Origin: a virus
Length of the DNA stretch: 15,272 nucleotides
Direction: 5' to 3' (one strand)
Virus genome (UHGV): UHGV-0202386
Part shown: piece after piece, positions 126 to 15,149 of the stretch
Layout of the letters: every line of letters starts with the position of its first letter
How positions within the stretch are numbered: position 1 is the stretch's first letter
The notes under the pieces: model-generated
Databases searched by the model: none
The model's input: only the letters and a program-made list of their open reading frames with translations
Told to the model about the DNA's origin: nothing
Program-made: the position numbers and the translations under genes

Positions 126-130
126 ATTAG

Positions 131-240
131 TGTTCTTTGCTGTTTCATAATGTGCCACGTTGTTCGTTATGTTTTTGATTTTTAAACGCATTGCAATTTT
201 TCTTGTTCCAGCTTGTTCCACGTTGTACCCCCTTGTGCAA
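131..240 (+). repeat. Array of about 8 TGTTC/TTGTTC-like motifs with 10-bp periodicity between attL and int
   Basis: TGTTC/TGTTT/TGTGC/TGTTC begin at 131, 141, 151, 161; CTTGTTCCA at 202 and 212, CGTTGTACC at 221, CTTGTGCA at 232. Read directly from the sequence. Confidence 0.6.
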
Positions 241-245
241 TGATC

Positions 246-268
246 GGTGTAGTCACTGGTGTAGTCAT
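246..268 (+). repeat. Tandem decamer GGTGTAGTCA x2 (12-bp spacing), candidate integrase arm-type sites in attL
   Basis: GGTGTAGTCAC 246-256 and GGTGTAGTCAT 258-268. A near-identical tandem pair lies at 15045-15066. Together with TTGTTCCACGTTGT (214-227 / 15013-15026) these form an imperfect direct repeat of about 60 bp just inside both ends. Confidence 0.55.
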
Positions 269-303: not shown

Positions 304-1533
304 GTGAGCAGAGCGCTTAACAAACTGAGCGATACATTGTTAAGAAAACTTTATGGTAAGCCAGCGGAGAAAAATACGTTCTATAGCGATGGCGGTAATC
401 TGAGCGTGAAATATTTAACATCAGGTAAATTGACCTGGTACTTCACCTACAGGGCTGGAACGGGAAGGGATACCACACCGGAACGCCTGAAGCTGGGAAA
501 CTATCCCGATCTGAGCCTTAAAGCAGCCAGGGAAAAAGCCGCAAAGTGTCGTGCATGGCTGGCAGAAGGGAAAAACCCACGTCATGAACTGAACTACACT
601 GTGCAGGAAGCGTTAAAACCCGTAACGGTTGGCGATGCGATCAGTTACTGGCTGGAAACGCACGTAAAGGAAAACCGTGTCGATTATGTATGCCTGAAAA
701 GTCGCCTGAATAATCACGTCATACAGCACATCGGTAACATGCCACTGGATAAATGCGAATTACGTCACTGGCTGGCCTGTTTTGACCGGATACGCAAAAA
801 ATCCCCCGTAACGTCTGGTCACATGATGCAGGCGTGTAAACAGGCGCTTAAGTTCTGCCGTAAACGTCGCTACGCAGTCAGTAACGTTCTGGATGATCTC
901 AACGTGGTGGACGTTGGCAAAAAGCCGGGCATAAGCGAACGCGTGCTTAGTAACAAAGAACTGGGCGAATTATTACAGGCGCTGGATAAAAAAATATTCC
1001 CGCCCTACTACAGCGCACTAATCCGCCTCCTGATTGTGTTTGGTTGCCGAACCGGAGAACTGAGGCTGTCGGAGATCAGGGAGTGGGATTTTAAGGAAAT
1101 GCTCTGGACAGTACCGAAGGAGCACAGCAAAACGAAGGTCGCCATATTCAGGCCAATACCGGAAAGCATTTTACCGTTTGTCACACGGCTGGTGGAGCAG
1201 AACCGACACACAGGGCTATTACTCGGGGAACTGAAACAGGAAGCCAGCGTGTCGCAATACGGCAGATTCACGCACAAAAAATTAAACCATCCGCACTGGT
1301 CACTACACGATATACGGCGCACGTTTACCACGATGCTGAATGATTTAGGCGTGGATCCGCATATTGTCGAACAACTCACCGCTCACCAGATGCCAGGGAT
1401 GCAGCGAGTCTATAACCACTCCCGTTATCTCGATGCGAAACGTAATGCGCTGGACATGTGGACAGAGCGGTTAGAGATACTGGCGGGTACTCACGAAAAC
1501 GTAACCACACTGCCAATAGCCAGAGAAATATAA
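304..1533 (+). CDS. int: Tyrosine recombinase / phage integrase (P4-type, with N-terminal arm-binding DUF4102-like region); GTG start
   Basis: 409-aa ORF. N-terminal pattern YSDGGNLSV..LTSGKLTWYFTYR...LKLGNYPDLSLKAAREKAAKCRAWLAEGKNP is typical of P4-family integrase arm domains. C-terminal catalytic signatures GCRTGELR, HWSLHDIRRTF, VYNHSRYLD. RBS-like GGGGGAG upstream of GTG 304. Sits next to attL. Confidence 0.9.
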   Translation: MSRALNKLSDTLLRKLYGKPAEKNTFYSDGGNLSVKYLTSGKLTWYFTYRAGTGRDTTPERLKLGNYPDLSLKAAREKAAKCRAWLAEGKNPRHELNYTVQEALKPVTVGDAISYWLETHVKENRVDYVCLKSRLNNHVIQHIGNMPLDKCELRHWLACFDRIRKKSPVTSGHMMQACKQALKFCRKRRYAVSNVLDDLNVVDVGKKPGISERVLSNKELGELLQALDKKIFPPYYSALIRLLIVFGCRTGELRLSEIREWDFKEMLWTVPKEHSKTKVAIFRPIPESILPFVTRLVEQNRHTGLLLGELKQEASVSQYGRFTHKKLNHPHWSLHDIRRTFTTMLNDLGVDPHIVEQLTAHQMPGMQRVYNHSRYLDAKRNALDMWTERLEILAGTHENVTTLPIAREI

Positions 1534-1620: not shown

Positions 1621-1699
1621 TAAAAATCAAACTCATTCATAACCATTTGATTTTTATATGTATACTGTTTTTTTATACACTGGCGAATCACTCTTAAAA

Positions 1700-1734: not shown

Positions 1735-1871
1735 TACTACATCACAATGAATTAAAAGTATTTTTATTCTAATTACCCCATATCTGTAAAACGACCGTCA
1801 CCAATATTTGCCATTCATCACTCTAGCGGGAACAATACGACACAATAAGACACCAAATGACTCTTTGAGAA

Positions 1872-2075
1872 ATGACGGAGGCAATAGTGTTAAGCGCTGA
1901 TCGCTTTATACGTGAAAAAGAATGTCAGCAACTTACAGGCCTGAGCCGCTCATGTCGGTATCGCCTGGAGAAGACTGGACAATTCCCATCACGGCGTAAA
2001 CTCGGCGGTCGTTCCGTTGGCTGGTCTTTATCCGAAGTTCTGGCATGGAAGGACAGCCGCGAGGCAGTTCACTAA
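1872..2075 (+). CDS. alpA: AlpA-family phage transcriptional regulator / excisionase-like HTH protein
   Basis: Translation RFIREKECQQLTGLSRSCRYRLEKTGQFPSRRKLGGRSVGWSLSEVLAWK matches the AlpA/Phage_AlpA pattern (..GxSRSTIYRL...FP....LG.RSVGW..SEV..W). Alternative in-frame GTG start at 1887 is preceded by GGAGG at 1877-1881. Confidence 0.8.
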   Translation: MTEAIVLSADRFIREKECQQLTGLSRSCRYRLEKTGQFPSRRKLGGRSVGWSLSEVLAWKDSREAVH

Positions 2076-2100: not shown

Positions 2101-2216
2101 CCCATCCACTAACACAGAGATCTAACCATGAATACTGGATATACGCCCGAACAGGGGCGGGGCTTCGTTCGTCCTGGTGAAACTAAAAAGCCATGTTATC
2201 GGGTATTTTCAGGCAT

Positions 2217-2287
2217 AAAAAAAGCGGCCCCGATAAGGAACCGCCTTTCTGAACAATTAACCTGCTGCGAAAAAAATGGATCAGTGC
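2217..2287 (-). ncRNA. Candidate small RNA of about 70 nt: extended -10 promoter to intrinsic terminator, in an ORF-free gap
   Basis: Minus-strand TGaTATAAT (plus 2294-2302) gives a predicted start near 2285-2287. Terminator hairpin at 2224-2248 (AAGGCGG..CCGCUU, about 11 bp with wobbles, 5-nt loop) is followed by U7 (plus A-run 2217-2223). No ORF of 60 aa or more on either strand here except the rejected long + frame. Confidence 0.3.
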
Positions 2288-2293
2288 AGGGGA

Positions 2294-2302
2294 ATTATAT
2301 CA
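2294..2302 (-). promoter_or_regulatory. Extended -10 promoter element TGaTATAAT (minus strand), no convincing -35
   Basis: Reverse complement of plus 2294-2302 reads TGATATAAT. Read directly. Confidence 0.35.
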
Positions 2303-2340
2303 ACCGTGTGGTGAAGCGCCACTATTGCCGGATAACAGGC

Positions 2341-2369
2341 AAAACAAAGGCGACCGCAAAAGGGTCGCC
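2341..2369 (-). terminator. Intrinsic terminator of the leftward RHH operon
   Basis: Perfect 7-bp stem GGCGACC/GGTCGCC (2349-2355 / 2363-2369) with 7-nt loop. On the minus strand it is followed by TTTGTTTTG (plus 2341-2348). Lies 66 nt downstream of the stop of ORF 2436-2609. Confidence 0.55.
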
Positions 2370-2435
2370 AGTGGGAACAAGGGAAAACAAAAGCATCACC
2401 AACAATGCCACATTTGCGGCTGGTGGGCAATGTGA

Positions 2436-2609
2436 TCAGTCAGATTTGGTTCGTTCCAAGGTTTGCAACGAGAGTTTTTTCCTGCGCTCTTTAAGGAATT
2501 TCTCAAGAGCAAACGAACAAGGTGCGAATCTTTCTGATTCATGCTCTATCTTTCTGCGCCGTCTTTTCCGTGTCGGTGATAATGTTTTGGTCAATTCTTT
2601 ATCGGTCAT
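2436..2609 (-). CDS. Hypothetical small basic protein (57 aa), second gene of the leftward operon
   Basis: ORF MTDKELTKTLSPTRKRRRRKIEHESERF..., AGGG 8 nt upstream of ATG 2609. An alternative ATG at 2624 has no RBS. A perfect 7-bp hairpin (2631-2637 / 2651-2657) separates it from the upstream gene. Supported mainly by the downstream terminator; no recognisable family. Confidence 0.35.
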   Translation of the reverse strand: MTDKELTKTLSPTRKRRRRKIEHESERFAPCSFALEKFLKERRKKLSLQTLERTKSD

Positions 2610-2666
2610 TGTGTTGCCCTGCATAGCAATGCGCCGTAATACCTTACACCACGGCGCTGGTGATGG

Positions 2667-2846
2667 TTACTCCTGCTCTTTGGCCTTGCGGCGCTGGCGG
2701 CGTTTGATCTCGCCTTGCATTGACGCAATGATGAATTGTGATGTGCTTTCGCCTGATTCTTTCACTGATTCCATGGCGTTTACTATTTCGTGTGGTACAC
2801 GAGCCTTTAGAGCTTGTGATTTTGCGTTTGTTGTACCCGTTGCCAT
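2667..2846 (-). CDS. Small ribbon-helix-helix (Arc/CopG-like) DNA-binding protein, candidate repressor of the divergent early promoter
   Basis: 59-aa ORF MATGTTNAKSQALKARVPHEIVNAMESVKESGESTSQFIIASMQGEIKRRQRRKAKEQE. By eye: beta strand (KARVP), helix, helix, basic tail. RBS AGAGGA upstream of ATG 2846. Faces a promoter overlapped by direct repeats. Confidence 0.65.
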   Translation of the reverse strand: MATGTTNAKSQALKARVPHEIVNAMESVKESGESTSQFIIASMQGEIKRRQRRKAKEQE

Positions 2847-2907
2847 TTCTATTCCTCTGTTGGATTGGTGGGGGACAGTATACACAGAAAAAGCACAAAT
2901 AAAACCC

Positions 2908-2948
2908 TTGACGTGGGCCACACCTAAAGCATATAGTGGGCCACACCT
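2908..2948 (+). promoter_or_regulatory. Rightward early promoter (-35 TTGACG 2908-2913, 18-bp spacer, -10 TATAGT 2932-2937) overlapped by two 13-bp direct-repeat operators GTGGGCCACACCT
   Basis: Repeat copies at 2913-2925 and 2936-2948 (perfect 13/13, 23-bp spacing), one over the -35/spacer and one over the -10/start. Sits in the divergent region between the RHH gene and the rightward ORF cluster. Confidence 0.5.
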
Positions 2949-2974
2949 TGAGATTGTCAAGGTGCATAAATGCA

Positions 2975-3009
2975 AAGCCCCGCAAGTGTCGTTACCACTC
3001 GCAGGGCTT
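2975..3009. other. Strong stem-loop in the 5' leader of the rightward operon; on the minus strand it reads as hairpin plus UUUGCAUUUAU
   Basis: AAGCCCCGCAAGTG (2975-2988) pairs with CACTCGCAGGGCTT (2996-3009) at 12 of 14 positions, 7-nt loop. No T-run on plus; T-rich tail on minus (plus 2961-2974). Confidence 0.5.
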
Positions 3010-3045
3010 CTAACCACCAACGATAGAAAGTGTATCGAGGTAGCT

Positions 3046-3252
3046 ATGAGAAATTATACCAGACACCCGCAAGGGCGGGACTCGTACAACCTGAATAAAT
3101 ACATCTGGCGTTTTATCGCCCTGAGCACGGCACAACCGCGCGTGATTACCATTGAGGCCACCAGCGAACAGGAAGCGCGTCAGCAATCTCCTGATGGCTG
3201 CGTGATGGTATTCGCTGCCCGTATTCGTCAGGGGGTACGCCATGTGCAATAA
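3046..3252 (+). CDS. Hypothetical protein (68 aa), first gene of the rightward early operon
   Basis: ATG 3046 preceded by GAGGT (3037-3041). Translation MRNYTRHPQGRDSYNLNKYIWRFIALSTAQPRVITIEATSEQEARQQSPDGCVMVFAARIRQGV. A vague resemblance to small Icd/Ash-like satellite proteins is my impression only. Confidence 0.6.
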   Translation: MRNYTRHPQGRDSYNLNKYIWRFIALSTAQPRVITIEATSEQEARQQSPDGCVMVFAARIRQGVRHVQ

Positions 3253-3938: not shown

Positions 3939-4238
3939 ATGAAACTTAAATATTCTGGCTTAACTGCCAGTGGCAACACTCACCCTAAATTTACGCGCGG
4001 CGATATTTACCGCGACCAGTACGGCGGCACGGTAATGATTAAGGGCGTGGAAGAACGGCGCGTAACCTACCGCCGTGAAGGTTACGAATATGATTGCGTG
4101 ATGCCTGTTTATCAGTTCCGGCGTGATTTTTCTCTGGTACAGACCGCGCCGCATAACGTGTCCACCAGCAACGCCAGGGCACGGGCAAACATCCAGAAGC
4201 TGAAAACCATGATTAACGGATTCAGGGGTAAAAAATGA
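3939..4238 (+). CDS. Hypothetical protein (99 aa), possibly DUF4222-like
   Basis: Motif YRDQYGGTVMIKGVEERRVTYRREGYEYDCVMPVYQFRRDF reminds me of DUF4222 proteins of enterobacterial prophages (memory only). Stop overlaps the primase start. Confidence 0.5.
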   Translation: MKLKYSGLTASGNTHPKFTRGDIYRDQYGGTVMIKGVEERRVTYRREGYEYDCVMPVYQFRRDFSLVQTAPHNVSTSNARARANIQKLKTMINGFRGKK

Positions 4239-6049
4239 AACTGGCACCGAACGTAAAACAGCAGTCACGCGGCATAAAACACAAAGAAACAGAAGTCATT
4301 ATTTTTGCGGGTAGTGATGCCTGGTCACACGCAAAACAATGGCAGGAACATGACGCGCGTATGGCCGGAGATAATGAGCCTCCTGTGTGGCTTGGGGAGC
4401 AGCAGTTATCCGAACTGGATAAGCTGCAAATTGTGCCGGAAGGCAGAAAATCCGTGCGCATATTCAGGGCCGGATATCTTGCGCCAGTAATGATAAAGGC
4501 GATTGGTCAGAAGCTGGCGGCGGCAGGCGTACAGGATGCAAATTTTTATCCTGAGGGTATGCACGGTCAGGAGGTGCAGAACTGGCGCGAATATCTGGCC
4601 CGTGAGCGCCAGAATCTTTCTGATGGTCTGGTGATTCAGCTTCCTGTTAAGAAAAAAACAGAAGACAGCGCCGCACCACTGGCGCTTAACCAGATGGGAG
4701 CAAGCCAGCGCGGCGAAGTTCTCCTGGCACATTATGGCGGTGAACTGGCGATTCATGCCGACTCTGACACTGTTCACCATTACAACGGCGTTGTATGGGA
4801 GCCGATTCAGGATAAAGAGTTACAGCGTGCTATGGCGCAGATTTTCATTGATGCGGAGATCAGCTATTCGCAGAACGCCATTAAATCGGCGGTCGATACC
4901 ATGAAGTTAAGTTTGCCTGTAATGGGGAATACAGCCCGTAACCTGATTGGATTCAGTAACGGGGTATTTGATACCAGAACAGGTAATTTTCGGGAGCATA
5001 ACAAAAACGACTGGTTGTTAATTGCCAGTGAATTACCTTTCAGCCCACCAGCAGAGGGGGAAACGCTGGCAACACATGCGCCGAATTTCTGGAAGTGGTT
5101 ACGCTGCTCGGTGGCAGAGAATGACCGCAAGACGGATCGCGTGCTGGCTGCATTATTCATGGTGCTGGCGAACCGGTACGACTGGCAGTTATTCATTGAG
5201 GTAACAGGTCCAGGGGGAAGTGGTAAAAGCGTGATGGCGGAGATTTGCACTATGCTGGCGGGTAAGGCCAACACAGTATCGGCAAGCATGAAGGCGCTGG
5301 AAGATGCAAGGGAACGCGCGTTAGTGGTTGGCTTTTCGCTGATTATCATGCCGGATATGACCCGCTACGCTGGTGATGGCGCAGGAATTAAGGCCATTAC
5401 AGGCGGTGACAAGGTGGCAATCGACCCGAAGCATAAAGCCCCCTACTCAACACGCATTCAGGCGGTCGTGCTGGCGGTGAACAATAACGCCATGTCATTC
5501 AGTGACCGCAGCGGGGGGATCTCACGTCGTCGGGTGATATTCAATTTTTCGGAGGTTGTACCGGAGAACGAGCGCGACCCCATGCTGGCAGAAAAAATAG
5601 AAGGAGAGCTGGCGGTTGTGATTCGCCATCTGCTTACTCGTTTTTCTGACCAGGACGAAGCTAAACGCCTGCTGTATGAGCAGCAGAAATCAGAAGAAGC
5701 TCTGGTGATAAAACGCGAGGGCGATTCGCTGGTGGACTTCTGTGGCTATCTCATGTCGTCGGTAATGTGTGATGGTCTGTTAGTGGGTAATGCCGAAATT
5801 ATTCCGTTCAGTCCGCGCAGGTATCTTTATCACGCCTATCTGGCATATATGAGGGCACACGGATTCGGTAAACCTGTAACACTGACGCGCTTCGGTAAAG
5901 ATATGCCGGGGGCAATGGCGGAATATGGCAGGGAGTATATAAAACGGAAAACGAAGCACGGTTTGCGTTCAAATGTGACACTGACAGAGGATTCAGAAGA
6001 CTGGATGCCATCATGTGCATCGGTCACAAATGACGACAGCAAAAATTAA
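4235..6049 (+). CDS. Replication initiator: P4-alpha-like primase / SF3 helicase (Walker A GPGGSGKS)
   Basis: 604-aa ORF. Walker A in VTGPGGSGKSVMAE, Walker B-like LIIMPDM, sensor AVVLAVNNN. Followed directly by TGTTCACC iterons, as for P4 alpha and its ori. Confidence 0.8.
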   Translation: MKLAPNVKQQSRGIKHKETEVIIFAGSDAWSHAKQWQEHDARMAGDNEPPVWLGEQQLSELDKLQIVPEGRKSVRIFRAGYLAPVMIKAIGQKLAAAGVQDANFYPEGMHGQEVQNWREYLARERQNLSDGLVIQLPVKKKTEDSAAPLALNQMGASQRGEVLLAHYGGELAIHADSDTVHHYNGVVWEPIQDKELQRAMAQIFIDAEISYSQNAIKSAVDTMKLSLPVMGNTARNLIGFSNGVFDTRTGNFREHNKNDWLLIASELPFSPPAEGETLATHAPNFWKWLRCSVAENDRKTDRVLAALFMVLANRYDWQLFIEVTGPGGSGKSVMAEICTMLAGKANTVSASMKALEDARERALVVGFSLIIMPDMTRYAGDGAGIKAITGGDKVAIDPKHKAPYSTRIQAVVLAVNNNAMSFSDRSGGISRRRVIFNFSEVVPENERDPMLAEKIEGELAVVIRHLLTRFSDQDEAKRLLYEQQKSEEALVIKREGDSLVDFCGYLMSSVMCDGLLVGNAEIIPFSPRRYLYHAYLAYMRAHGFGKPVTLTRFGKDMPGAMAEYGREYIKRKTKHGLRSNVTLTEDSEDWMPSCASVTNDDSKN

Positions 6050-6062
6050 ACTTATGGAATAA

Positions 6063-6293
6063 CTGTTCACCACTGTTCACCCTGTTATAAATATCTTTTA
6101 TATCAGTACATTATAGGGTGAACAGTTATTTGTGAACTGTTCACCAAACTATTCACTGTTCACCTTTTTGATTATTTATTGAGCTTTAAGGGTGAACAGT
6201 GGTGAACAGTTGGTGAATAGTTTTTGTGAAACTGTTCACCCCTTAACGTTATGAATAAAAAGGGAAAATCTCAAAAGGTGAACAGGTGAAGGG
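6063..6293. repeat. Origin of replication: about 11 copies of the 9-mer CTGTTCACC (P4 type-I iteron TGTTCACC) in both orientations
   Basis: Plus-orientation copies at 6063, 6073, 6137, 6156, 6232; reverse-orientation GGTGAACAG at 6117, 6191, 6201, 6277, with variants at 6212 and 6285. AT-rich spacers. Lies immediately downstream of the primase. Confidence 0.8.
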
Positions 6294-7040: not shown

Positions 7041-7571
7041 ATGACAACGCTGACCATTAACCGGAAGCCGAAAGGCATTTACGGCACGCCGCAGAAAACG
7101 ACGCAGGCGGCGCAAGAGCAGGATAAAACCACATCGGTGCATAAAGTGATACCCGGCAATCAGAACGCACAGCAGAAGCCCACAGGGGCGACACCGTGGC
7201 AGCATATGACCAAAAGGCAGCGCAAAAACCGCCGACGCGTTAACCGCCTCACTGAGATGTGGCCTGACTTATTCAGCCATAAAGCACCGAAGCCGCTTAA
7301 GGTGGGGATATTCGACGACCTGATGCAGGATATCGCCGTCAGGGGGCTGGCATTCGGGTCGGGGGTATTACGTGCGACGCTGGCATCCTATGCGCAGTCT
7401 CCGCGCTATTACCGCGCCCTGATAGCTGGTGGCGCACGTTACGACCTGAAGGGCCAGCCATGTGGGGAAGTGACACCACAGGAACAGCAGGAGGCAGAAA
7501 CACGGCTGATGGTGCTGAATGAGAAGCACAAGCGCCAGCGCCGGGCAGCAAAGGGGGATACATGCCAGTGA
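7041..7571 (+). CDS. ProQ/FinO-domain RNA-binding protein (FinO-like RNA chaperone)
   Basis: PKPLKVGIFDDLMQDIAVRG...LRATLASYAQSPRYYRALIAGGARYDLKGQPCGEVTPQEQQEA aligns by eye to the ProQ/FinO core (PLKIGIFQDL...[35 protein letters not shown]). Lys/Gln-rich N-terminal extension. RBS AGGGGAAGG. Confidence 0.8.
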   Translation: MTTLTINRKPKGIYGTPQKTTQAAQEQDKTTSVHKVIPGNQNAQQKPTGATPWQHMTKRQRKNRRRVNRLTEMWPDLFSHKAPKPLKVGIFDDLMQDIAVRGLAFGSGVLRATLASYAQSPRYYRALIAGGARYDLKGQPCGEVTPQEQQEAETRLMVLNEKHKRQRRAAKGDTCQ

Positions 7572-7810: not shown

Positions 7811-7820
7811 AGCGATAAAG

Positions 7821-7847
7821 GCCCGGATTTTTTCCGGGTCTTTTTTC
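7821..7847 (+). terminator. Rho-independent terminator ending the early/replication operon
   Basis: GCCCGGA-TTTTT-TCCGGGTC hairpin (7821-7840) followed by TTTTTT (7841-7847). Confidence 0.8.
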
Positions 7848-7864
7848 AGGTTTTGTAAATTATT

Positions 7865-7890
7865 TGTTCGTGGTTGTTCCAGGTTGTTCG
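7865..7890 (+). repeat. Three TTGTTC motifs exactly 10 bp apart, upstream of the capsid operon
   Basis: TTGTTC at 7865, 7875, 7885 (TTGTTCGTGG / TTGTTCCAGG / TTGTTCGGTG). Same motif family as the arrays at 131-240, 1555-1620 and 15001-15030. Confidence 0.6.
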
Positions 7891-7980
7891 GTGATTCTGG
7901 TTGATGTTTACATACTGATTTTTATGTATATGTTGGCGTGTGGCACTCAGACGTGAGCCGCCACAATGCCGCCTGATCCC

Positions 7981-8083: not shown

Positions 8084-9229
8084 ATGAAGAAATTAATCGA
8101 ACTCCGCCAGCAAAAAACCGCCCTGAAAAACCAGATGCGATCCCTGCTGGAAAAAGCCGACAGTGAAAACCGCAGTCTAACCGATGACGAAGGCAAACAG
8201 TTTGATGAACTGCGTGCAAAAGCCGATTCCCTCGACACAGAAATTTCCCGCCTCGAGTCTGTGGCTGATGAAGAACGTAACCAGCCTGGTGTTCCCGTCG
8301 AAGATAAAATCACCAAAAATGAGCTACGCTCTTACATTCTGACCGGGGAAACCCGCAACCTGTCCGGCAGTGTTCCGGCTGATGGTGGTTATACGGTTAT
8401 CCCGGAACTGAACAGAGAAATTATGCGTCAGCTTTCTGATGAGTCGGTGATGCGTAAAATCTGTACTGTTAAAACCATTCACAGTAATGAATTTAAGCAA
8501 CTGGTTTCTGCCGGGGGTGCGGTCGTGGGACACGGCGAAGAAGGTGCGGCACGTAACCAGACGGCAACCCCAAAACTGAATGAAGTCAGTATCCGCCTGT
8601 ATCCGATCTACGCTTACCCGAAAACCACTCAGGAAATTATCGATTTTTCCGAAGTCGATATTATGGGCTGGTTATCTTCTGAAATTGGCGACACTTTCGT
8701 TGATACCGAAGAAACGGATCTGGTTTCCGGTGATGGCGAGAAAAAAGCCAAAGGTTTCCTGACTTTCCCGCGCGCTACGGATAATGACAAAACCCGTCCT
8801 TTCGGTACGCTCCAGACGAAAAAAGTGACTGGCAGTCTCAGCGCCGATATGCTGATTGACCTGAAATTTACGCTGCGCAATAAGTACCGCAAAAAAGCTG
8901 TATGGGTGATGAACTCAAATACAGCCGCCTCCGCACAAAAACTGAAAAATGCCACTGGTGATTACATCTGGCGCGATCGTTTACAGGCTGGTGATCCTGA
9001 TTCTCTGCTGGGGCTTCCGGTTGAATATCTGGAATTTATGCCGGACGGTGTGATTGCAGTCGGTGACTTTAAGCGCGGTTATTTCATCGTTGACCATAAA
9101 ACCGGTACGCGTACCCGTCCGGATTTCAGCGAGCCTGGATTCATTAACATCTATACCCAGAAATATCTGGGCGGTGGTGTGGTGGATTCGAACGCCATCA
9201 AGATTCTGGAAATTCAGGCTGGCAAGTAA
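8084..9229 (+). CDS. HK97-family major capsid protein with N-terminal coiled-coil delta/scaffold domain
   Basis: 381 aa. N-terminal about 70 aa is charged coiled-coil (ELRQQKTALKNQMRSLLEKADSENRSL..). C-terminal motifs LLGLPVEYLEFMP..GDFKRGYFIVDHKTG...YLGGGVVDSNAIKILE are typical of Phage_capsid (HK97 fold). Confidence 0.85.
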   Translation: MKKLIELRQQKTALKNQMRSLLEKADSENRSLTDDEGKQFDELRAKADSLDTEISRLESVADEERNQPGVPVEDKITKNELRSYILTGETRNLSGSVPADGGYTVIPELNREIMRQLSDESVMRKICTVKTIHSNEFKQLVSAGGAVVGHGEEGAARNQTATPKLNEVSIRLYPIYAYPKTTQEIIDFSEVDIMGWLSSEIGDTFVDTEETDLVSGDGEKKAKGFLTFPRATDNDKTRPFGTLQTKKVTGSLSADMLIDLKFTLRNKYRKKAVWVMNSNTAASAQKLKNATGDYIWRDRLQAGDPDSLLGLPVEYLEFMPDGVIAVGDFKRGYFIVDHKTGTRTRPDFSEPGFINIYTQKYLGGGVVDSNAIKILEIQAGK

Positions 9230-12435: not shown

Positions 12436-14080
12436 GTACGCAGAAGGCGTAAAAAACGGCAAAATTACGGCCTGTAAACGACTGAAACAGGCCGTTAAAC
12501 GGTATTTTTCTGACCTTGAAAACCCCCTTTACACGTTCGATCCGGAGGTCGTGGAGCGGTTTATTGCCTTTTCCAGGGTGTGTCCGCACGTAAAAGGCGC
12601 AATGCGCGGTAGCCCCATTGAGCTGGAGCCGTGGCAGCAGTTCGCCTTTGCGTGCATCCTGGGCTTTAAGGTTAAGGCCACCGGACGGCGCAAATACACC
12701 AGCGCATTCATTGAAGTGCCGCGAAAAAATGCCAAATCCACGGTCGCCGCTATCCTGGCTAACTGGTTTCTGGTTATGGAAAACGGGCAGCAGGATATTT
12801 ACACCGCCGCTGTGAGTCGTGATCAGGCGCGGATCGTGTTTGATGATGCGCGTCAGATGTGCCTTTTATCCCGACCGTTACGAAAGCGGGTAAATATTCA
12901 GGCACACAAGGTGATACACCCGAAAACCAACAGCCTGTTAAAGCCACTGGCAGCAAAAGCGGCAACCATTGAAGGTACAAACCCGAGTCTTGCCATTGTG
13001 GATGAATATCACCTGCACCCTGACAACGGGGTTTATTCCGCGCTTGAACTGGGAATGGGGGCGCGTCCGGAGGGGCTGTTATTTGCCATCACCACATCGG
13101 GGAGCAACGTTGTTTCAGCCTGTAAACAACACTATGACTATTGCTGCCAGATACTGGATGGTGAAGAGGTGAACGAATCCATGTTCGTGCTGATTTACGA
13201 GCTGGATGATGAAAGCGAGGTTGACGATCCGGCGATGTGGATAAAGGCGAATCCCAATATCGATGTTTCCGTCGATCGTGAAAAACTGGCCTCAACCATC
13301 CAGAAAGCGCGGGGTATTCCGTCGCAGTGGGTGGAAATGCTCACCAAGCGATTCAATATCTGGTGTCAGGGGGCTACGCCGTGGATGGGTAACGGTGCAT
13401 GGGCGGAGTGCGCCGGAACGTTCGCGGAGGCGGATTTATACGGTCAGGAGTGCTACGCGGGGCTGGACTTATCATCAACCAGCGATATTTCCAGCGTGTG
13501 CTATGCCTTTCCGGTCGGTAAAAAGATTATGCTGGTTTCCCGTCACTATCTGCCGGAATTTCAGCTACAGAACCCCGCCAATAAAAACCGCGCCATCTAT
13601 CGCCAGTGGGTAAAGGCGGGCTGGATACGCACAACACCGGGTGACTGCATTGATTATGACCGTATCCGTGATGACATCATGGCGGATGCAGAGAATTTCA
13701 ATATCAGGCTGGTGGGCTTCGATACATGGAACGCCACGCACCTGAGGACGCAGCTACAGGGGGCAGGATTTGAGGTGGAGCCGTTCCCGCAAACATACCT
13801 TCGTTTCAGTCCGGCGGCGAAATCGTTCGAAGTTTTTGTTAACCGGAAGGTGATTGTGCATCGTGGCGATCCGGTGCTGGCCTGGTCAATGAGTAATGTT
13901 GTGATGCAGAGTGACGCGAACGCCAATATCAAGCCGAACAAGAAAAAATCATCCAACAAGATAGACCCGAGCGTTGCGGCTCTGATGGCGTTTGGCACAT
14001 TCCAGGCAGAACATGAGGAATTTGCATTTGATATAAGCGACAGCCACAAAGAGCGGCTTGCGGCGTTTGATGGGGTATGA
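12419..14080 (+). CDS. terL: Terminase large subunit (Terminase_1-like ATPase/nuclease); apparent TTG start overlapping terS by 17 nt
   Basis: 553 aa. Size, position after terS and a conserved-looking N-terminal region (PWQQFAFACILGFKV..., DIYTAAVSRDQARIVFDDAR). No in-frame ATG until codon 62; GAGGA at 12408-12412 precedes TTG 12419. Confidence 0.85.
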   Translation: MTAWHEYAEGVKNGKITACKRLKQAVKRYFSDLENPLYTFDPEVVERFIAFSRVCPHVKGAMRGSPIELEPWQQFAFACILGFKVKATGRRKYTSAFIEVPRKNAKSTVAAILANWFLVMENGQQDIYTAAVSRDQARIVFDDARQMCLLSRPLRKRVNIQAHKVIHPKTNSLLKPLAAKAATIEGTNPSLAIVDEYHLHPDNGVYSALELGMGARPEGLLFAITTSGSNVVSACKQHYDYCCQILDGEEVNESMFVLIYELDDESEVDDPAMWIKANPNIDVSVDREKLASTIQKARGIPSQWVEMLTKRFNIWCQGATPWMGNGAWAECAGTFAEADLYGQECYAGLDLSSTSDISSVCYAFPVGKKIMLVSRHYLPEFQLQNPANKNRAIYRQWVKAGWIRTTPGDCIDYDRIRDDIMADAENFNIRLVGFDTWNATHLRTQLQGAGFEVEPFPQTYLRFSPAAKSFEVFVNRKVIVHRGDPVLAWSMSNVVMQSDANANIKPNKKKSSNKIDPSVAALMAFGTFQAEHEEFAFDISDSHKERLAAFDGV

Positions 14081-14370
14081 CGAGAATGAGCGAAACCGAA
14101 CTACTAAAAATAATCCGTCGCGTTACCGGAATCAGCCAGGAAGCAGGCAAACAGGAGGCCACGCAGCCGGACAGCGTGATAGCCGAAAATTACGCGCGTG
14201 TGGTGGCTGAGGTGATGCGCCGTGACGGTATCGAGCTTAACGGCGTGGATATACGCAATATACGCACCAGAGTTCTGGAGTTGTTGTCATATCGTCGCCG
14301 CGTGGAGATGTACCAGGAGAAAGAAAAAATTACTTACCACTGGAAGAAGCCGGAGCGGTTACGACGTTAA
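14077..14370 (+). CDS. Hypothetical protein (97 aa) translationally coupled to terL
   Basis: ATG 14077 overlaps the terL stop (ATGA). Alternative ATG at 14086. Unknown family. Confidence 0.5.
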   Translation: MTRMSETELLKIIRRVTGISQEAGKQEATQPDSVIAENYARVVAEVMRRDGIELNGVDIRNIRTRVLELLSYRRRVEMYQEKEKITYHWKKPERLRR

Positions 14371-14376
14371 CTTGTG

Positions 14377-14426
14377 GTGACATACCGTGACGGAGAGTGA
14401 CAACCAGTGACACACAGTGACAAAAA
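14377..14426 (+). repeat. Five GTGAC(A) motifs at exactly 10-bp spacing (one face of the helix)
   Basis: GTGAC starts at 14377, 14387, 14397, 14407, 14417 (GTGACATACC / GTGACGGAGA / GTGACAACCA / GTGACACACA / GTGACAAAAA). Begins 7 bp after the last stop codon. Confidence 0.7.
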
Positions 14427-14624: not shown

Positions 14625-14676
14625 GCGGGTTATTTGGGGGGGATTTGCGGGTTATTTTGAATGTCTCGCGGGTTAC
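14625..14676 (+). repeat. Three direct copies of GCGGGTTA at 22-bp spacing
   Basis: Copies at 14625-14632, 14647-14654, 14669-14676, preceded by a CCCCAT/ATGGGG hairpin (14604-14622). Confidence 0.6.
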
Positions 14677-14752
14677 GCTTTGGCTAATATTCAAACGCAT
14701 CATTTTTTAACCCATTGATATTAAATAATAAAAAACACTTAGCAAGCGAAGA

Positions 14753-14777
14753 TAACCCGCTAACCCGCATAACCCGC
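14753..14777 (-). repeat. Three tandem copies of TAACCCGC (reverse complement of GCGGGTTA) at 8-9 bp spacing
   Basis: 14753-14760, 14761-14768, 14770-14777. Forms an inverted arrangement with the 14625-14676 array around a 76-bp AT-rich centre (14677-14752). Confidence 0.6.
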
Positions 14778-14799: not shown

Positions 14800-15000
14800 G
14801 AAAAATTGCATTCAGGAGGTGGGATCGAAATCCCTACAACCCATTGCTTATGGGACTGCCCGCCCCGTCAAATTTTTACACCCGCGAAAAATACTTCAAG
14901 CTGGTGGGCATGATGCCGATATGGGGATCCCCATGTCGACATTAACGCCCCTCATGAATTGGCGTGCTTCCCCCTGGAAAGATGACCCGCCTGTATATTT

Positions 15001-15066
15001 CTTGTGTCTATTTGTTCCACGTTGTTTCATACAGTGCACCGAACGGTGTAGTTACTGGTGTAGTCA
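15001..15066 (+). repeat. Right-arm copy of the terminal repeat: 3 phased TTGT motifs, TTGTTCCACGTTGT, and tandem GGTGTAGTTA/GGTGTAGTCA
   Basis: TTGT at 15002, 15012, 15022. TTGTTCCACGTTGT 15013-15026 is identical to 214-227. GGTGTAGTTACTGGTGTAGTCAT 15045-15067 versus left GGTGTAGTCACTGGTGTAGTCAT 246-268. Confidence 0.6.
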
Positions 15067-15133: not shown

Positions 15134-15149
15134 ATTATAAATAGCGGAT
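15134..15149. repeat. attR core: right copy of the 16-bp junction repeat (ATTATAAATAGCGGAT)
   Basis: 15 of 16 identical to 102-117. comM sequence resumes in frame from here. Confidence 0.65.

Follow-up and report, generated by a model that had tools for sequence, protein, structure and literature searches.

The window, the whole stretch of 15,272 nucleotides analysed here (virus genome UHGV-0202386), contains a 15-kb element lying between 10-bp direct repeats AATAGCGGAT at positions 108-117 and 15140-15149. The insertion target is a gene annotated as a magnesium-chelatase-domain protein (Mg-chelatase-like), and homology to related elements begins at window position 118. After the attL core, the element-side half reads TTTTATAAAT and is inverted relative to the TTATAAA found left of the attR core. 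The main genes and sites of the element are as follows.

108-117 (element-side half to 127), plus strand: attL core AATAGCGGAT, defined by its 10-bp identity with attR
304-1533, plus strand: int, a P4-type tyrosine integrase with an Arm-DNA-bind_3 N-domain (Pfam)
1872-2075, plus strand: alpA, a 67-aa winged-helix protein (Pfam Phage_AlpA) and the proposed binder of the arrays described below
4235-6049: D5-type primase (Pfam)
6048-6290: iteron-rich origin region, following the primase gene
8084-9229: capsid gene
15140-15149, plus strand: attR core AATAGCGGAT, from the sequence

The origin region holds ten GGTGAACAG/CTGTTCACC iterons in two inverted sets, partly at 10-bp spacing. Besides int, alpA and pri-rep, Pfam matches identify an SSB and the element's own capsid, protease, portal, connector, HNH, TerS and TerL genes, all within about 15 kb; none of the ORFs scanned in the window matched a tail family in Pfam. 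Based on this gene content, which is the same as that of cf-PICIs such as EcCIEDL933, the element is a capsid-forming PICI (cf-PICI).

A few other features of the element deserve mention. A ProQ/FinO-family RNA chaperone (7041-7571) sits between the SSB gene and the capsid module. A 374-aa ORF after alpA (2128-3252) matches the PHROGs category 'transcriptional repressor' with its C-terminal 80 residues alone, and its RefSeq relatives are annotated as Icd-like. Because the zone after alpA differs between related PICIs, the product of this ORF is unlikely to be the binder of conserved arrays. Between int and alpA, a hairpin at 1712-1735 (-10.4 kcal/mol) shows compensatory changes in relatives (GCGTAAAA/TTTTACGC versus GGCATAAAA/TTTTATGCC). 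The T-run lies on the minus strand; the hairpin thus resembles a terminator of leftward transcription or, alternatively, a stop for both directions following int.

An earlier sequence-only reading of this DNA had noted about eight TGTTC-like motifs, phased at 10 bp, between attL and int. We find nine units there, arranged in two blocks, with TGT anchors at 131, 141, 151, 161 and (170) and then at 204, 214, 224 and 234. The blocks are 73 bp apart, so no single strict 10-bp register runs across both. The three motifs that the same reading had placed before attR are also there, with TGT at 15003, 15013 and 15023, together with a degenerate fourth unit. Exact TGTTC occurs at 131, 161, 204, 214 and 15013. 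Three additional arrays, A2, A3 and A4 below, had gone unreported. The six arrays comprise 25 units with the consensus ynTTGT(T/G)(C/T)C(a/t), recurring at exactly 10 bp.

128-177, plus strand: array A1a (block 1), five units TAGTGTTCTT TGCTGTTTCA TAATGTGCCA CGTTGTTCGT TTATGTTTTT, the last of them 1 bp off register
178-200, plus strand: AT-rich spacer between blocks 1 and 2 with a TTGAT(T/A)T motif, a weak feature read from the sequence
201-240, plus strand: array A1b (block 2), four units TCTTGTTCCA GCTTGTTCCA CGTTGTACCC CCTTGTGCAA
1557-1616, minus strand: array A2, six inverted units GCTTGTCCCA TTTTGTTCCT TGTTGTTCGT CGTTGTGTCT CGTTGTTCCA CGTTGTGTCC, directly after int
1640-1652, minus strand: exact IHF consensus match WATCAANNNNTTR between A2 and the alpA promoter, a weak feature
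1828-1857, minus strand: array A3, three inverted units over the alpA -10 and leader
7851-7891, plus strand: array A4, four units TTTTGTAAAT ATTTGTTCGT GGTTGTTCCA GGTTGTTCGG, ending 16 bp before a promoter-like site
15000-15039, plus strand: array A6 on the attR arm, TCTTGTGTCT ATTTGTTCCA CGTTGTTTCA and the degenerate TACAGTGCAC

The 10-bp phasing of these units far exceeds chance. Same-strand pairs of TTGT occur 14, 9 and 4 times at lags of 10, 20 and 30, compared to 0-3 times at other lags. At lag 10 the window contains four runs of at least three TTGT, the longest with 6, and none of 300 dinucleotide-preserving shuffles contains any; at lags 8, 9, 11 and 12 such runs are absent from the window. 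A motif-blind scan for 5-mers (runs of at least three, lags 9-12) gave matches at lag 10 alone, at 1561, 7864 and 14377. With the TGT anchor left out, the information content of the 25 units is 3.58 bits, compared to 0.61 ± 0.19 (maximum 1.45) in random TGT-anchored sets.

Around the arrays, we noted several sequences with possible roles of their own. A TGTTTTTT-like word (TAGTGTTCTTTG here) at 128-140 overlaps the first A1a unit and is conserved beside the core across all Int types examined, even though the core itself varies; possible roles are a core-type Int site and the first RDF site. The motif in the spacer at 178-200 resembles an IHF site: it differs from YAANNNNTTGATW at one position, and in the relative L143 the match is perfect. 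No exact IHF consensus lies in the attL spacer; the only exact matches in the window are at 1640-1652 and 14708-14720 (2 observed, 0.76 expected).

The 14377 match of the motif-blind scan belongs to another 10-bp phased array, in which GTGAC is repeated five times at exact 10-bp spacing (14377-14425), directly after the last ORF (14077-14370; phrog_1561). Four copies are found in the classical PICIs L001 (27217), L003 (27953) and L005 (25814). Because its TGTCAC unit differs from TTGTTCC at two positions, this array is likely read by a different binder, and it is possibly packaging-related or cosB-like. Downstream, GCGGGTTA occurs in three direct copies (14625, 14647 and 14668) and three inverted copies (14753, 14761 and 14770) around an AT-rich stretch. 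The cluster (14625-14777; 0.56 copies expected by chance) is conserved in L004 at 26990-27170 and is a possible cos site or second origin-like site.

The att arms carry a second class of repeat, a 12-bp tandem pair GGTGTAGTCAnnGGTGTAGTCA that the sequence-only reading did not mention. One copy of the pair separates block 2 from int, and another is on the attR arm.

246-267, plus strand: tandem pair GGTGTAGTCAct GGTGTAGTCA of the P′ arm, which begins 132 bp from the core centre and may serve as Int arm-type sites
15045-15066, plus strand: tandem pair GGTGTAGTTAct GGTGTAGTCA of the P arm, likewise candidate Int arm-type sites

Exact copies of the pair word (GGTGTAGTYA) are found at the two att arms and nowhere else in the window. 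A6 is part of a 76-nt direct repeat of 196-271 (78% identity), which means that a four-unit array together with the 12-bp pair is duplicated on both arms.

The arrays outside att (A2/A3 and A4) are associated with promoter-like sites.

1808-1836, plus strand: promoter-like TTGCCA-17-AACAAT, the putative PalpA, whose -10 is the first A3 unit
7812-7852, plus strand: GC-rich hairpin with a T-run (-19 kcal/mol, z -4.15), closing the replication module
7907-7934, plus strand: promoter-like TTTACA-16-TATGTT upstream of the capsid gene

Since A3 covers the -10 and the leader of the putative PalpA, its position would suggest repression rather than the reported autoactivation. A4 lies at about -88 to -51 of the capsid-operon promoter. 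The 3′ end of the hairpin at 7812-7852, which a separate scan did not flag, overlaps the first A4 unit by 2 nt. A sigma-70 scan of 100-303 found no int promoter.

We then compared the arrays with those of relatives, drawing on E. coli genomes and about 140 viral contig loci. A related int-alpA module is present in about 1,100 of the 5,426 complete E. coli genomes. The register of the arrays is preserved in over 70 related elements, including ones whose Int is only 52-54% identical. All inspected PICIs carry arrays, with two attL blocks, 3-6 units after int, units at the alpA promoter and three at attR. The A2 counterpart (3-6 units) was seen in about 70 relatives; no clear array was found upstream of alpA in the distant relatives L143 and L145. 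An exact 4-mer run search, done de novo, missed the arrays of the most divergent loci; these could be recognised when the sequences were aligned on the 12-bp pair and read directly.

For the attL arm, we aligned 17 unique relatives on the 12-bp pair, including some with an Int only 52-54% identical to that of the window. The order of core, block 1, AT spacer, block 2, 12-bp pair and int is the same in all 17. TGT is found at -43, -33 and -23 from the pair in 13, 16 and 15 of the 17, respectively, and block 1 at -117, -97, -87 and -77. The distance from the last unit to the pair is 13 or 23 bp, that is, whole turns apart. The TTGAT motif of the AT spacer is conserved among the aligned relatives. 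The ACAA/TTGT cores of the units are retained although the stretches between them diverge.

The promoter arrays are also retained. A3 has 3 or 4 units in relatives, with the 17-bp promoter spacing kept and the -35 of the putative PalpA (TTGCCA) invariant. In three divergent cf-PICIs, A4 is the most conserved stretch of its intergenic region, and TTTAC and TAT of the capsid promoter-like site are invariant in relatives. The only constant neighbours of the arrays are int and alpA; the zone after alpA and the replication module vary. Units of distant relatives (L143 1225-1255 and L139 1400-1430) read (T/C)GTTCA(T/A)G, a word similar to the TorR tor box CTGTTCATAT.

Next, we looked at AlpA itself. 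The protein matches Pfam Phage_AlpA (PF05930) with an E value of 3.4e-18 and the PHROG 'excisionase and transcriptional regulator'. In a single-sequence structure prediction (pLDDT 77), it is modelled as a helix-turn-helix with a wing and a C-terminal helix. The top fold match is the GIsul2 excisionase (8C3T; TM 0.73/0.84, 39% identity), and further matches are the RdfS excisionase (8DGL), TorI (1Z4H), BldC and MerR-type domains. According to this predicted model, AlpA is an excisionase-fold winged helix, a small RDF-type protein. In the homologous element EcCICFT073, AlpA activates PalpA and downstream genes, and its overexpression leads to int-dependent excision with no helper and with Pint not raised (PMC6092414). 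AlpA of PICMI acts as an excisionase and has a TorI-like fold (PMC10803314). RdfS, Cox, Xis and BldC are described as assembling head to tail on DNA, each turn of which takes up one protomer, and as acting in both recombination and transcription (PMC11963761).

We also considered and rejected the model of the Q-like Pseudomonas AlpA antiterminator. That protein is larger, with 8 helices and residues beyond 140, and uses a single 6-bp ABE (GGGACG) between -35 and -10, as against a 67-aa protein and arrays here.

The closest architectural parallel that we compared is the prophage KplE1 (CPS-53), where int is likewise directed away from attL and its upstream region forms part of attL. In this prophage, the RDF TorI has five sites (GTTCG, GATCG and GTCCG), which it binds cooperatively and which fall into two blocks; the second block has three sites at 10-bp spacing beside the intS -35 (PMC2951348, PMC3509656). 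The IntS arm sites lie between the second TorI block and the intS ATG (PMC2951348), and TorI represses PintS. The window thus shares with KplE1 two blocks of RDF-type sites between core and int, a GTTC core in the distal block and a winged-helix RDF. Nevertheless, TorI is not a member of Pfam AlpA (26% identity over 42 aa), so the two systems are alike in architecture and fold class but do not share a protein family. In addition, torI sits at the opposite end of the prophage, some 10 kb away from intS, whereas alpA adjoins int in the window. TorI sites are described on attL only (PMC2951348), while the window arrays are longer and are found on both arms and at two promoters.

Satellite P4 offers a second parallel. 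P4 has a P4-type Int, 12-bp tandem pairs on both arms that are annotated as attP arm repeats in GenBank, and four phased units (GTCCT, TTCCG, GTCCG and ATCCG) directly upstream of the int-proximal pair. Its Vis protein is an AlpA-family excisionase and regulator. CP4-57 likewise has phased GTCC(G) units just upstream of its 12-bp int-proximal arm-repeat pair. P4 differs in its unit word (GTCC), in its pair word (TGGGGGCA) and in having vis far from int, and the stretch that we read shows no obvious array on the other arm. According to Cali et al. in 2004, Vis reportedly binds two boxes between core and int. At the Cox boxes of P2 and the Apl sites of 186, the small winged-helix proteins Cox and Apl bind and bend direct repeats spaced by a helical turn, and each is both RDF and promoter regulator.

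The filament of lambda Xis on X1, X1.5 and X2, RdfS and BldC are alike in being small winged-helix proteins on direct repeats one turn apart, with bending of the DNA (PMC11963761). Xis, Cox, Apl, RdfS and BldC belong to other protein subfamilies and read other words, and for RdfS no clear sequence motif is described (PMC11963761), in contrast to the well-defined word of the window arrays. For the pair, a counterpart is the doubled motif tgTGTATTGCantgTGTATTGCa of HE-PICIs, published in 2023: a 12-bp tandem in two copies of the same orientation, located some 81 bp upstream of the attP centre and 132 bp downstream of it (PMC10111431). This is the geometry of the doubled GGTGTAGTCA, whose pair also starts 132 bp from the core centre. 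The HE-PICI motif has a different word and is stated to be absent from other PICIs; the paper leaves the choice between Int and AlpA open and does not mention phased TTGTTC arrays (PMC10111431). Our literature search found no mapping of AlpA sites in PICIs, no binding data for any PICI AlpA and no mention of phased TTGTTC arrays, the doubled 12-bp motif of the sister clade being the only att-arm motif reported.

The variation of the two repeat classes among relatives bears on which protein reads which. In elements with the window-type AlpA, the base after TTGTnn is mostly C (42 C and 3 G at attL, 272 C and 61 G in the int-alpA region). In a second AlpA allele group this base shifts to G (55 G and 3 C at attL). 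An element whose AlpA has the recognition helix CRMHRY instead of CRTTRY carries GTA(C/T)A phased units and a GGTGTATCAC pair, and Vis and the CP4-57 AlpA, with TIY helices, occur with GTCC units. Int and AlpA alleles mostly co-vary, except in one recombinant class. This class has a third type of Int N-domain (about 60-65% identical) together with an AlpA 90-100% identical to the second allele, that of L004. It keeps TTGTTCG arrays, and both copies of its pair carry a one-base change to GTGTGGTCA. In this one class, the pair has changed along with the type of Int N-domain while AlpA and the arrays have stayed.

The sequence-only reading had named the integrase arm domain, AlpA and the primase as candidates for the binder, and among these AlpA appears to be the best one. 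We consider it probable that AlpA lines up along the arrays and thereby serves both excision and control of its own and the capsid promoters. The idea that one protein oligomerises on one face of the DNA fits the exact spacing, the common unit and the conserved register; AlpA as the binder, the formation of filaments and the sign of regulation at each promoter are what we infer. Like known RDF arrays, the window arrays are tandem repeats at helical-turn spacing, lie, in attL, between the core and the candidate Int arm-type sites and occur in an element that encodes a small winged-helix RDF. Several observations count against AlpA. The placement of A3 over the -10 and the leader is one of them, and another is that L143 and L145 have no clear array upstream of alpA. 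A four-unit array with its pair is found on both arms, unlike the one-arm RDF sites of KplE1 and lambda, and AlpA had no effect on Pint-lacZ in EcCICFT073 (PMC6092414), although block 2 abuts the upstream region of int.

An alternative that we regard as unlikely is that the arrays are extra arm-type sites for the Arm-DNA-bind_3 domain of Int, in which case stacked Int would also regulate transcription of int, alpA and the capsid genes. Int does carry an arm-binding domain, arrays lie on both att arms beside core and int, and the variants of Int and array mostly change together. Int also represses its own promoter in KplE1 and P4 (PMC2951348). However, the arrays are not confined to the arms: some lie at promoters, at distances of 1.4 kb and 7.7 kb from the core, as would suit a regulator. 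It is also the RDF, not IntS, that occupies the phased GTTCG sites of KplE1 (PMC2951348). Moreover, it is the separate pair that has the layout of the P4 arm repeats and of the HE-PICI doubled motif, including the +132 position, and it is the pair that changes in the recombinant class. By analogy, the 12-bp tandem pair GGTGTAGTCA is thus a better candidate for the Int arm sites than the TTGTTC arrays, so that the proposal of the Int arm domain as a binder fits the pair, with its exact copies at the att arms only, rather than the units for which it was made. The arm sites P′1-P′3 of lambda Int are tandem phased direct repeats too, and phasing alone therefore cannot separate Int from AlpA; the discrimination draws on analogy and on a single recombinant class with a one-base change in its pair. 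For the primase, the TGTTC shared with the origin iteron CTGTTCACC, the ten copies of that iteron and their partial 10-bp spacing would suggest that a D5-type primase or replication initiator binds the arrays. We rejected this candidate, to which we give next to no weight: iterons follow the Rep type (AAAGTGGGGA with a RepA helicase in L001, CTGTCTACC in L002) and the arrays do not. Six related elements have other iterons and zero GGTGAACAG, two with a RepA helicase replacing the primase, and all six keep 7-11 TTGTTC(C/G) words and four GTGTAGTYA sites. Such swaps of the replication module with the arrays retained contradict the link that the sequence-only reading had drawn through the iteron.

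It is also conceivable, but quite unlikely, that the reader of the arrays, or at any rate of the promoter arrays, is a factor from outside the element, either a helper Xis/Cox-like protein, as P2 Cox at P4 PLL, or a host OmpR/PhoB-type regulator such as TorR. P4 has three 10-bp GCTTTAAGTG-like repeats upstream of vis, annotated as ori type 2 repeats, which we take to resemble P2 cox boxes. Among the lambda Xis sites, X1 (ATGTTGTGTTTT) is similar to the unit CGTTGTGTCT and X2 (ATGTAGTCTGTTTT) to the pair GGTGTAGTCA. The lambda attP stretch compared was 72-112 (L158); lambda is known to act as a helper for the related EcCICFT073 and to induce it. The likeness of the Xis sites may be due to chance, or may be a lead for excisionase cross-talk between helper and satellite. 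The tor boxes are tandem decamers CTGTTCATAT with the same GTTC core and 10-bp layout (PMC9239176), excisionase cross-talk between PICI and helper has been demonstrated (PMC11773190), and a helper-phage function switches on alpA (PMC6092414). Our literature search found no paper that identifies the helper function inducing alpA. On the other hand, AlpA needs no helper to activate PalpA and to trigger excision (PMC6092414), the unit co-varies with element-encoded alleles while host factors are constant, and the likenesses are 7-mers that could arise by chance. A combined scheme, which we hold to be improbable, would make the arrays a shared operator code for excision, alpA autoregulation and capsid expression, read by AlpA and by a helper Xis/Cox-type protein; the latter would be the helper signal that induces Gram-negative PICIs, comparable to P2 Cox on P4 PLL. 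Finally, a 10-bp period in a T-rich context, on att arms that need bending, would be expected of sequence-directed DNA curvature or of sites for general nucleoid proteins with no dedicated binder. This explanation is very improbable, for the conserved positions are the G and C of a specific word and not A-tracts, and the word differs by element family (GTTC, GTCC, GTAC) while the layout is constant.

If AlpA is indeed the binder, it would act on the arrays as both a recombination directionality factor (excisionase) and a transcription factor. AlpA would be produced after induction by a helper phage and would then polymerise on the arrays, with its monomers lying head to tail, one per 10-bp unit, and reading TTGT(T/G)(C/T)C. 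The resulting cooperative filaments would be short, with three to six protomers. On the att arms, they would lie between the core and the 12-bp Int arm sites, 13 or 23 bp from the pair. There they would act in concert with an IHF-type bend of the AT spacer, giving attL and attR a shape that lets Int carry out excision, and would position the arm-bound Int N-domains for excisive recombination. Binding to A2 and A3 may provide feedback control of the alpA promoter, and on A4 AlpA may switch on the capsid operon and packaging module from a class-I-like position.

Excisionase filaments on phased repeats, and proteins that are both RDF and regulator, are known from other systems, and on the proposed reading the arrays are the counterpart in PICIs of the TorI, Vis, Xis and Cox sites. 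In Gram-negative PICIs and cf-PICIs, AlpA serves as the master switch, and the arrays provide a concrete candidate for an "AlpA box" at six locations. Arrays and pair represent two separate classes of repeat in PICI att sites, and this split helps to settle the question of Int versus AlpA left by the paper on the HE-PICI doubled motif. If the proposed reading is true, one small protein ties excision to the expression of alpA and of the capsid module.
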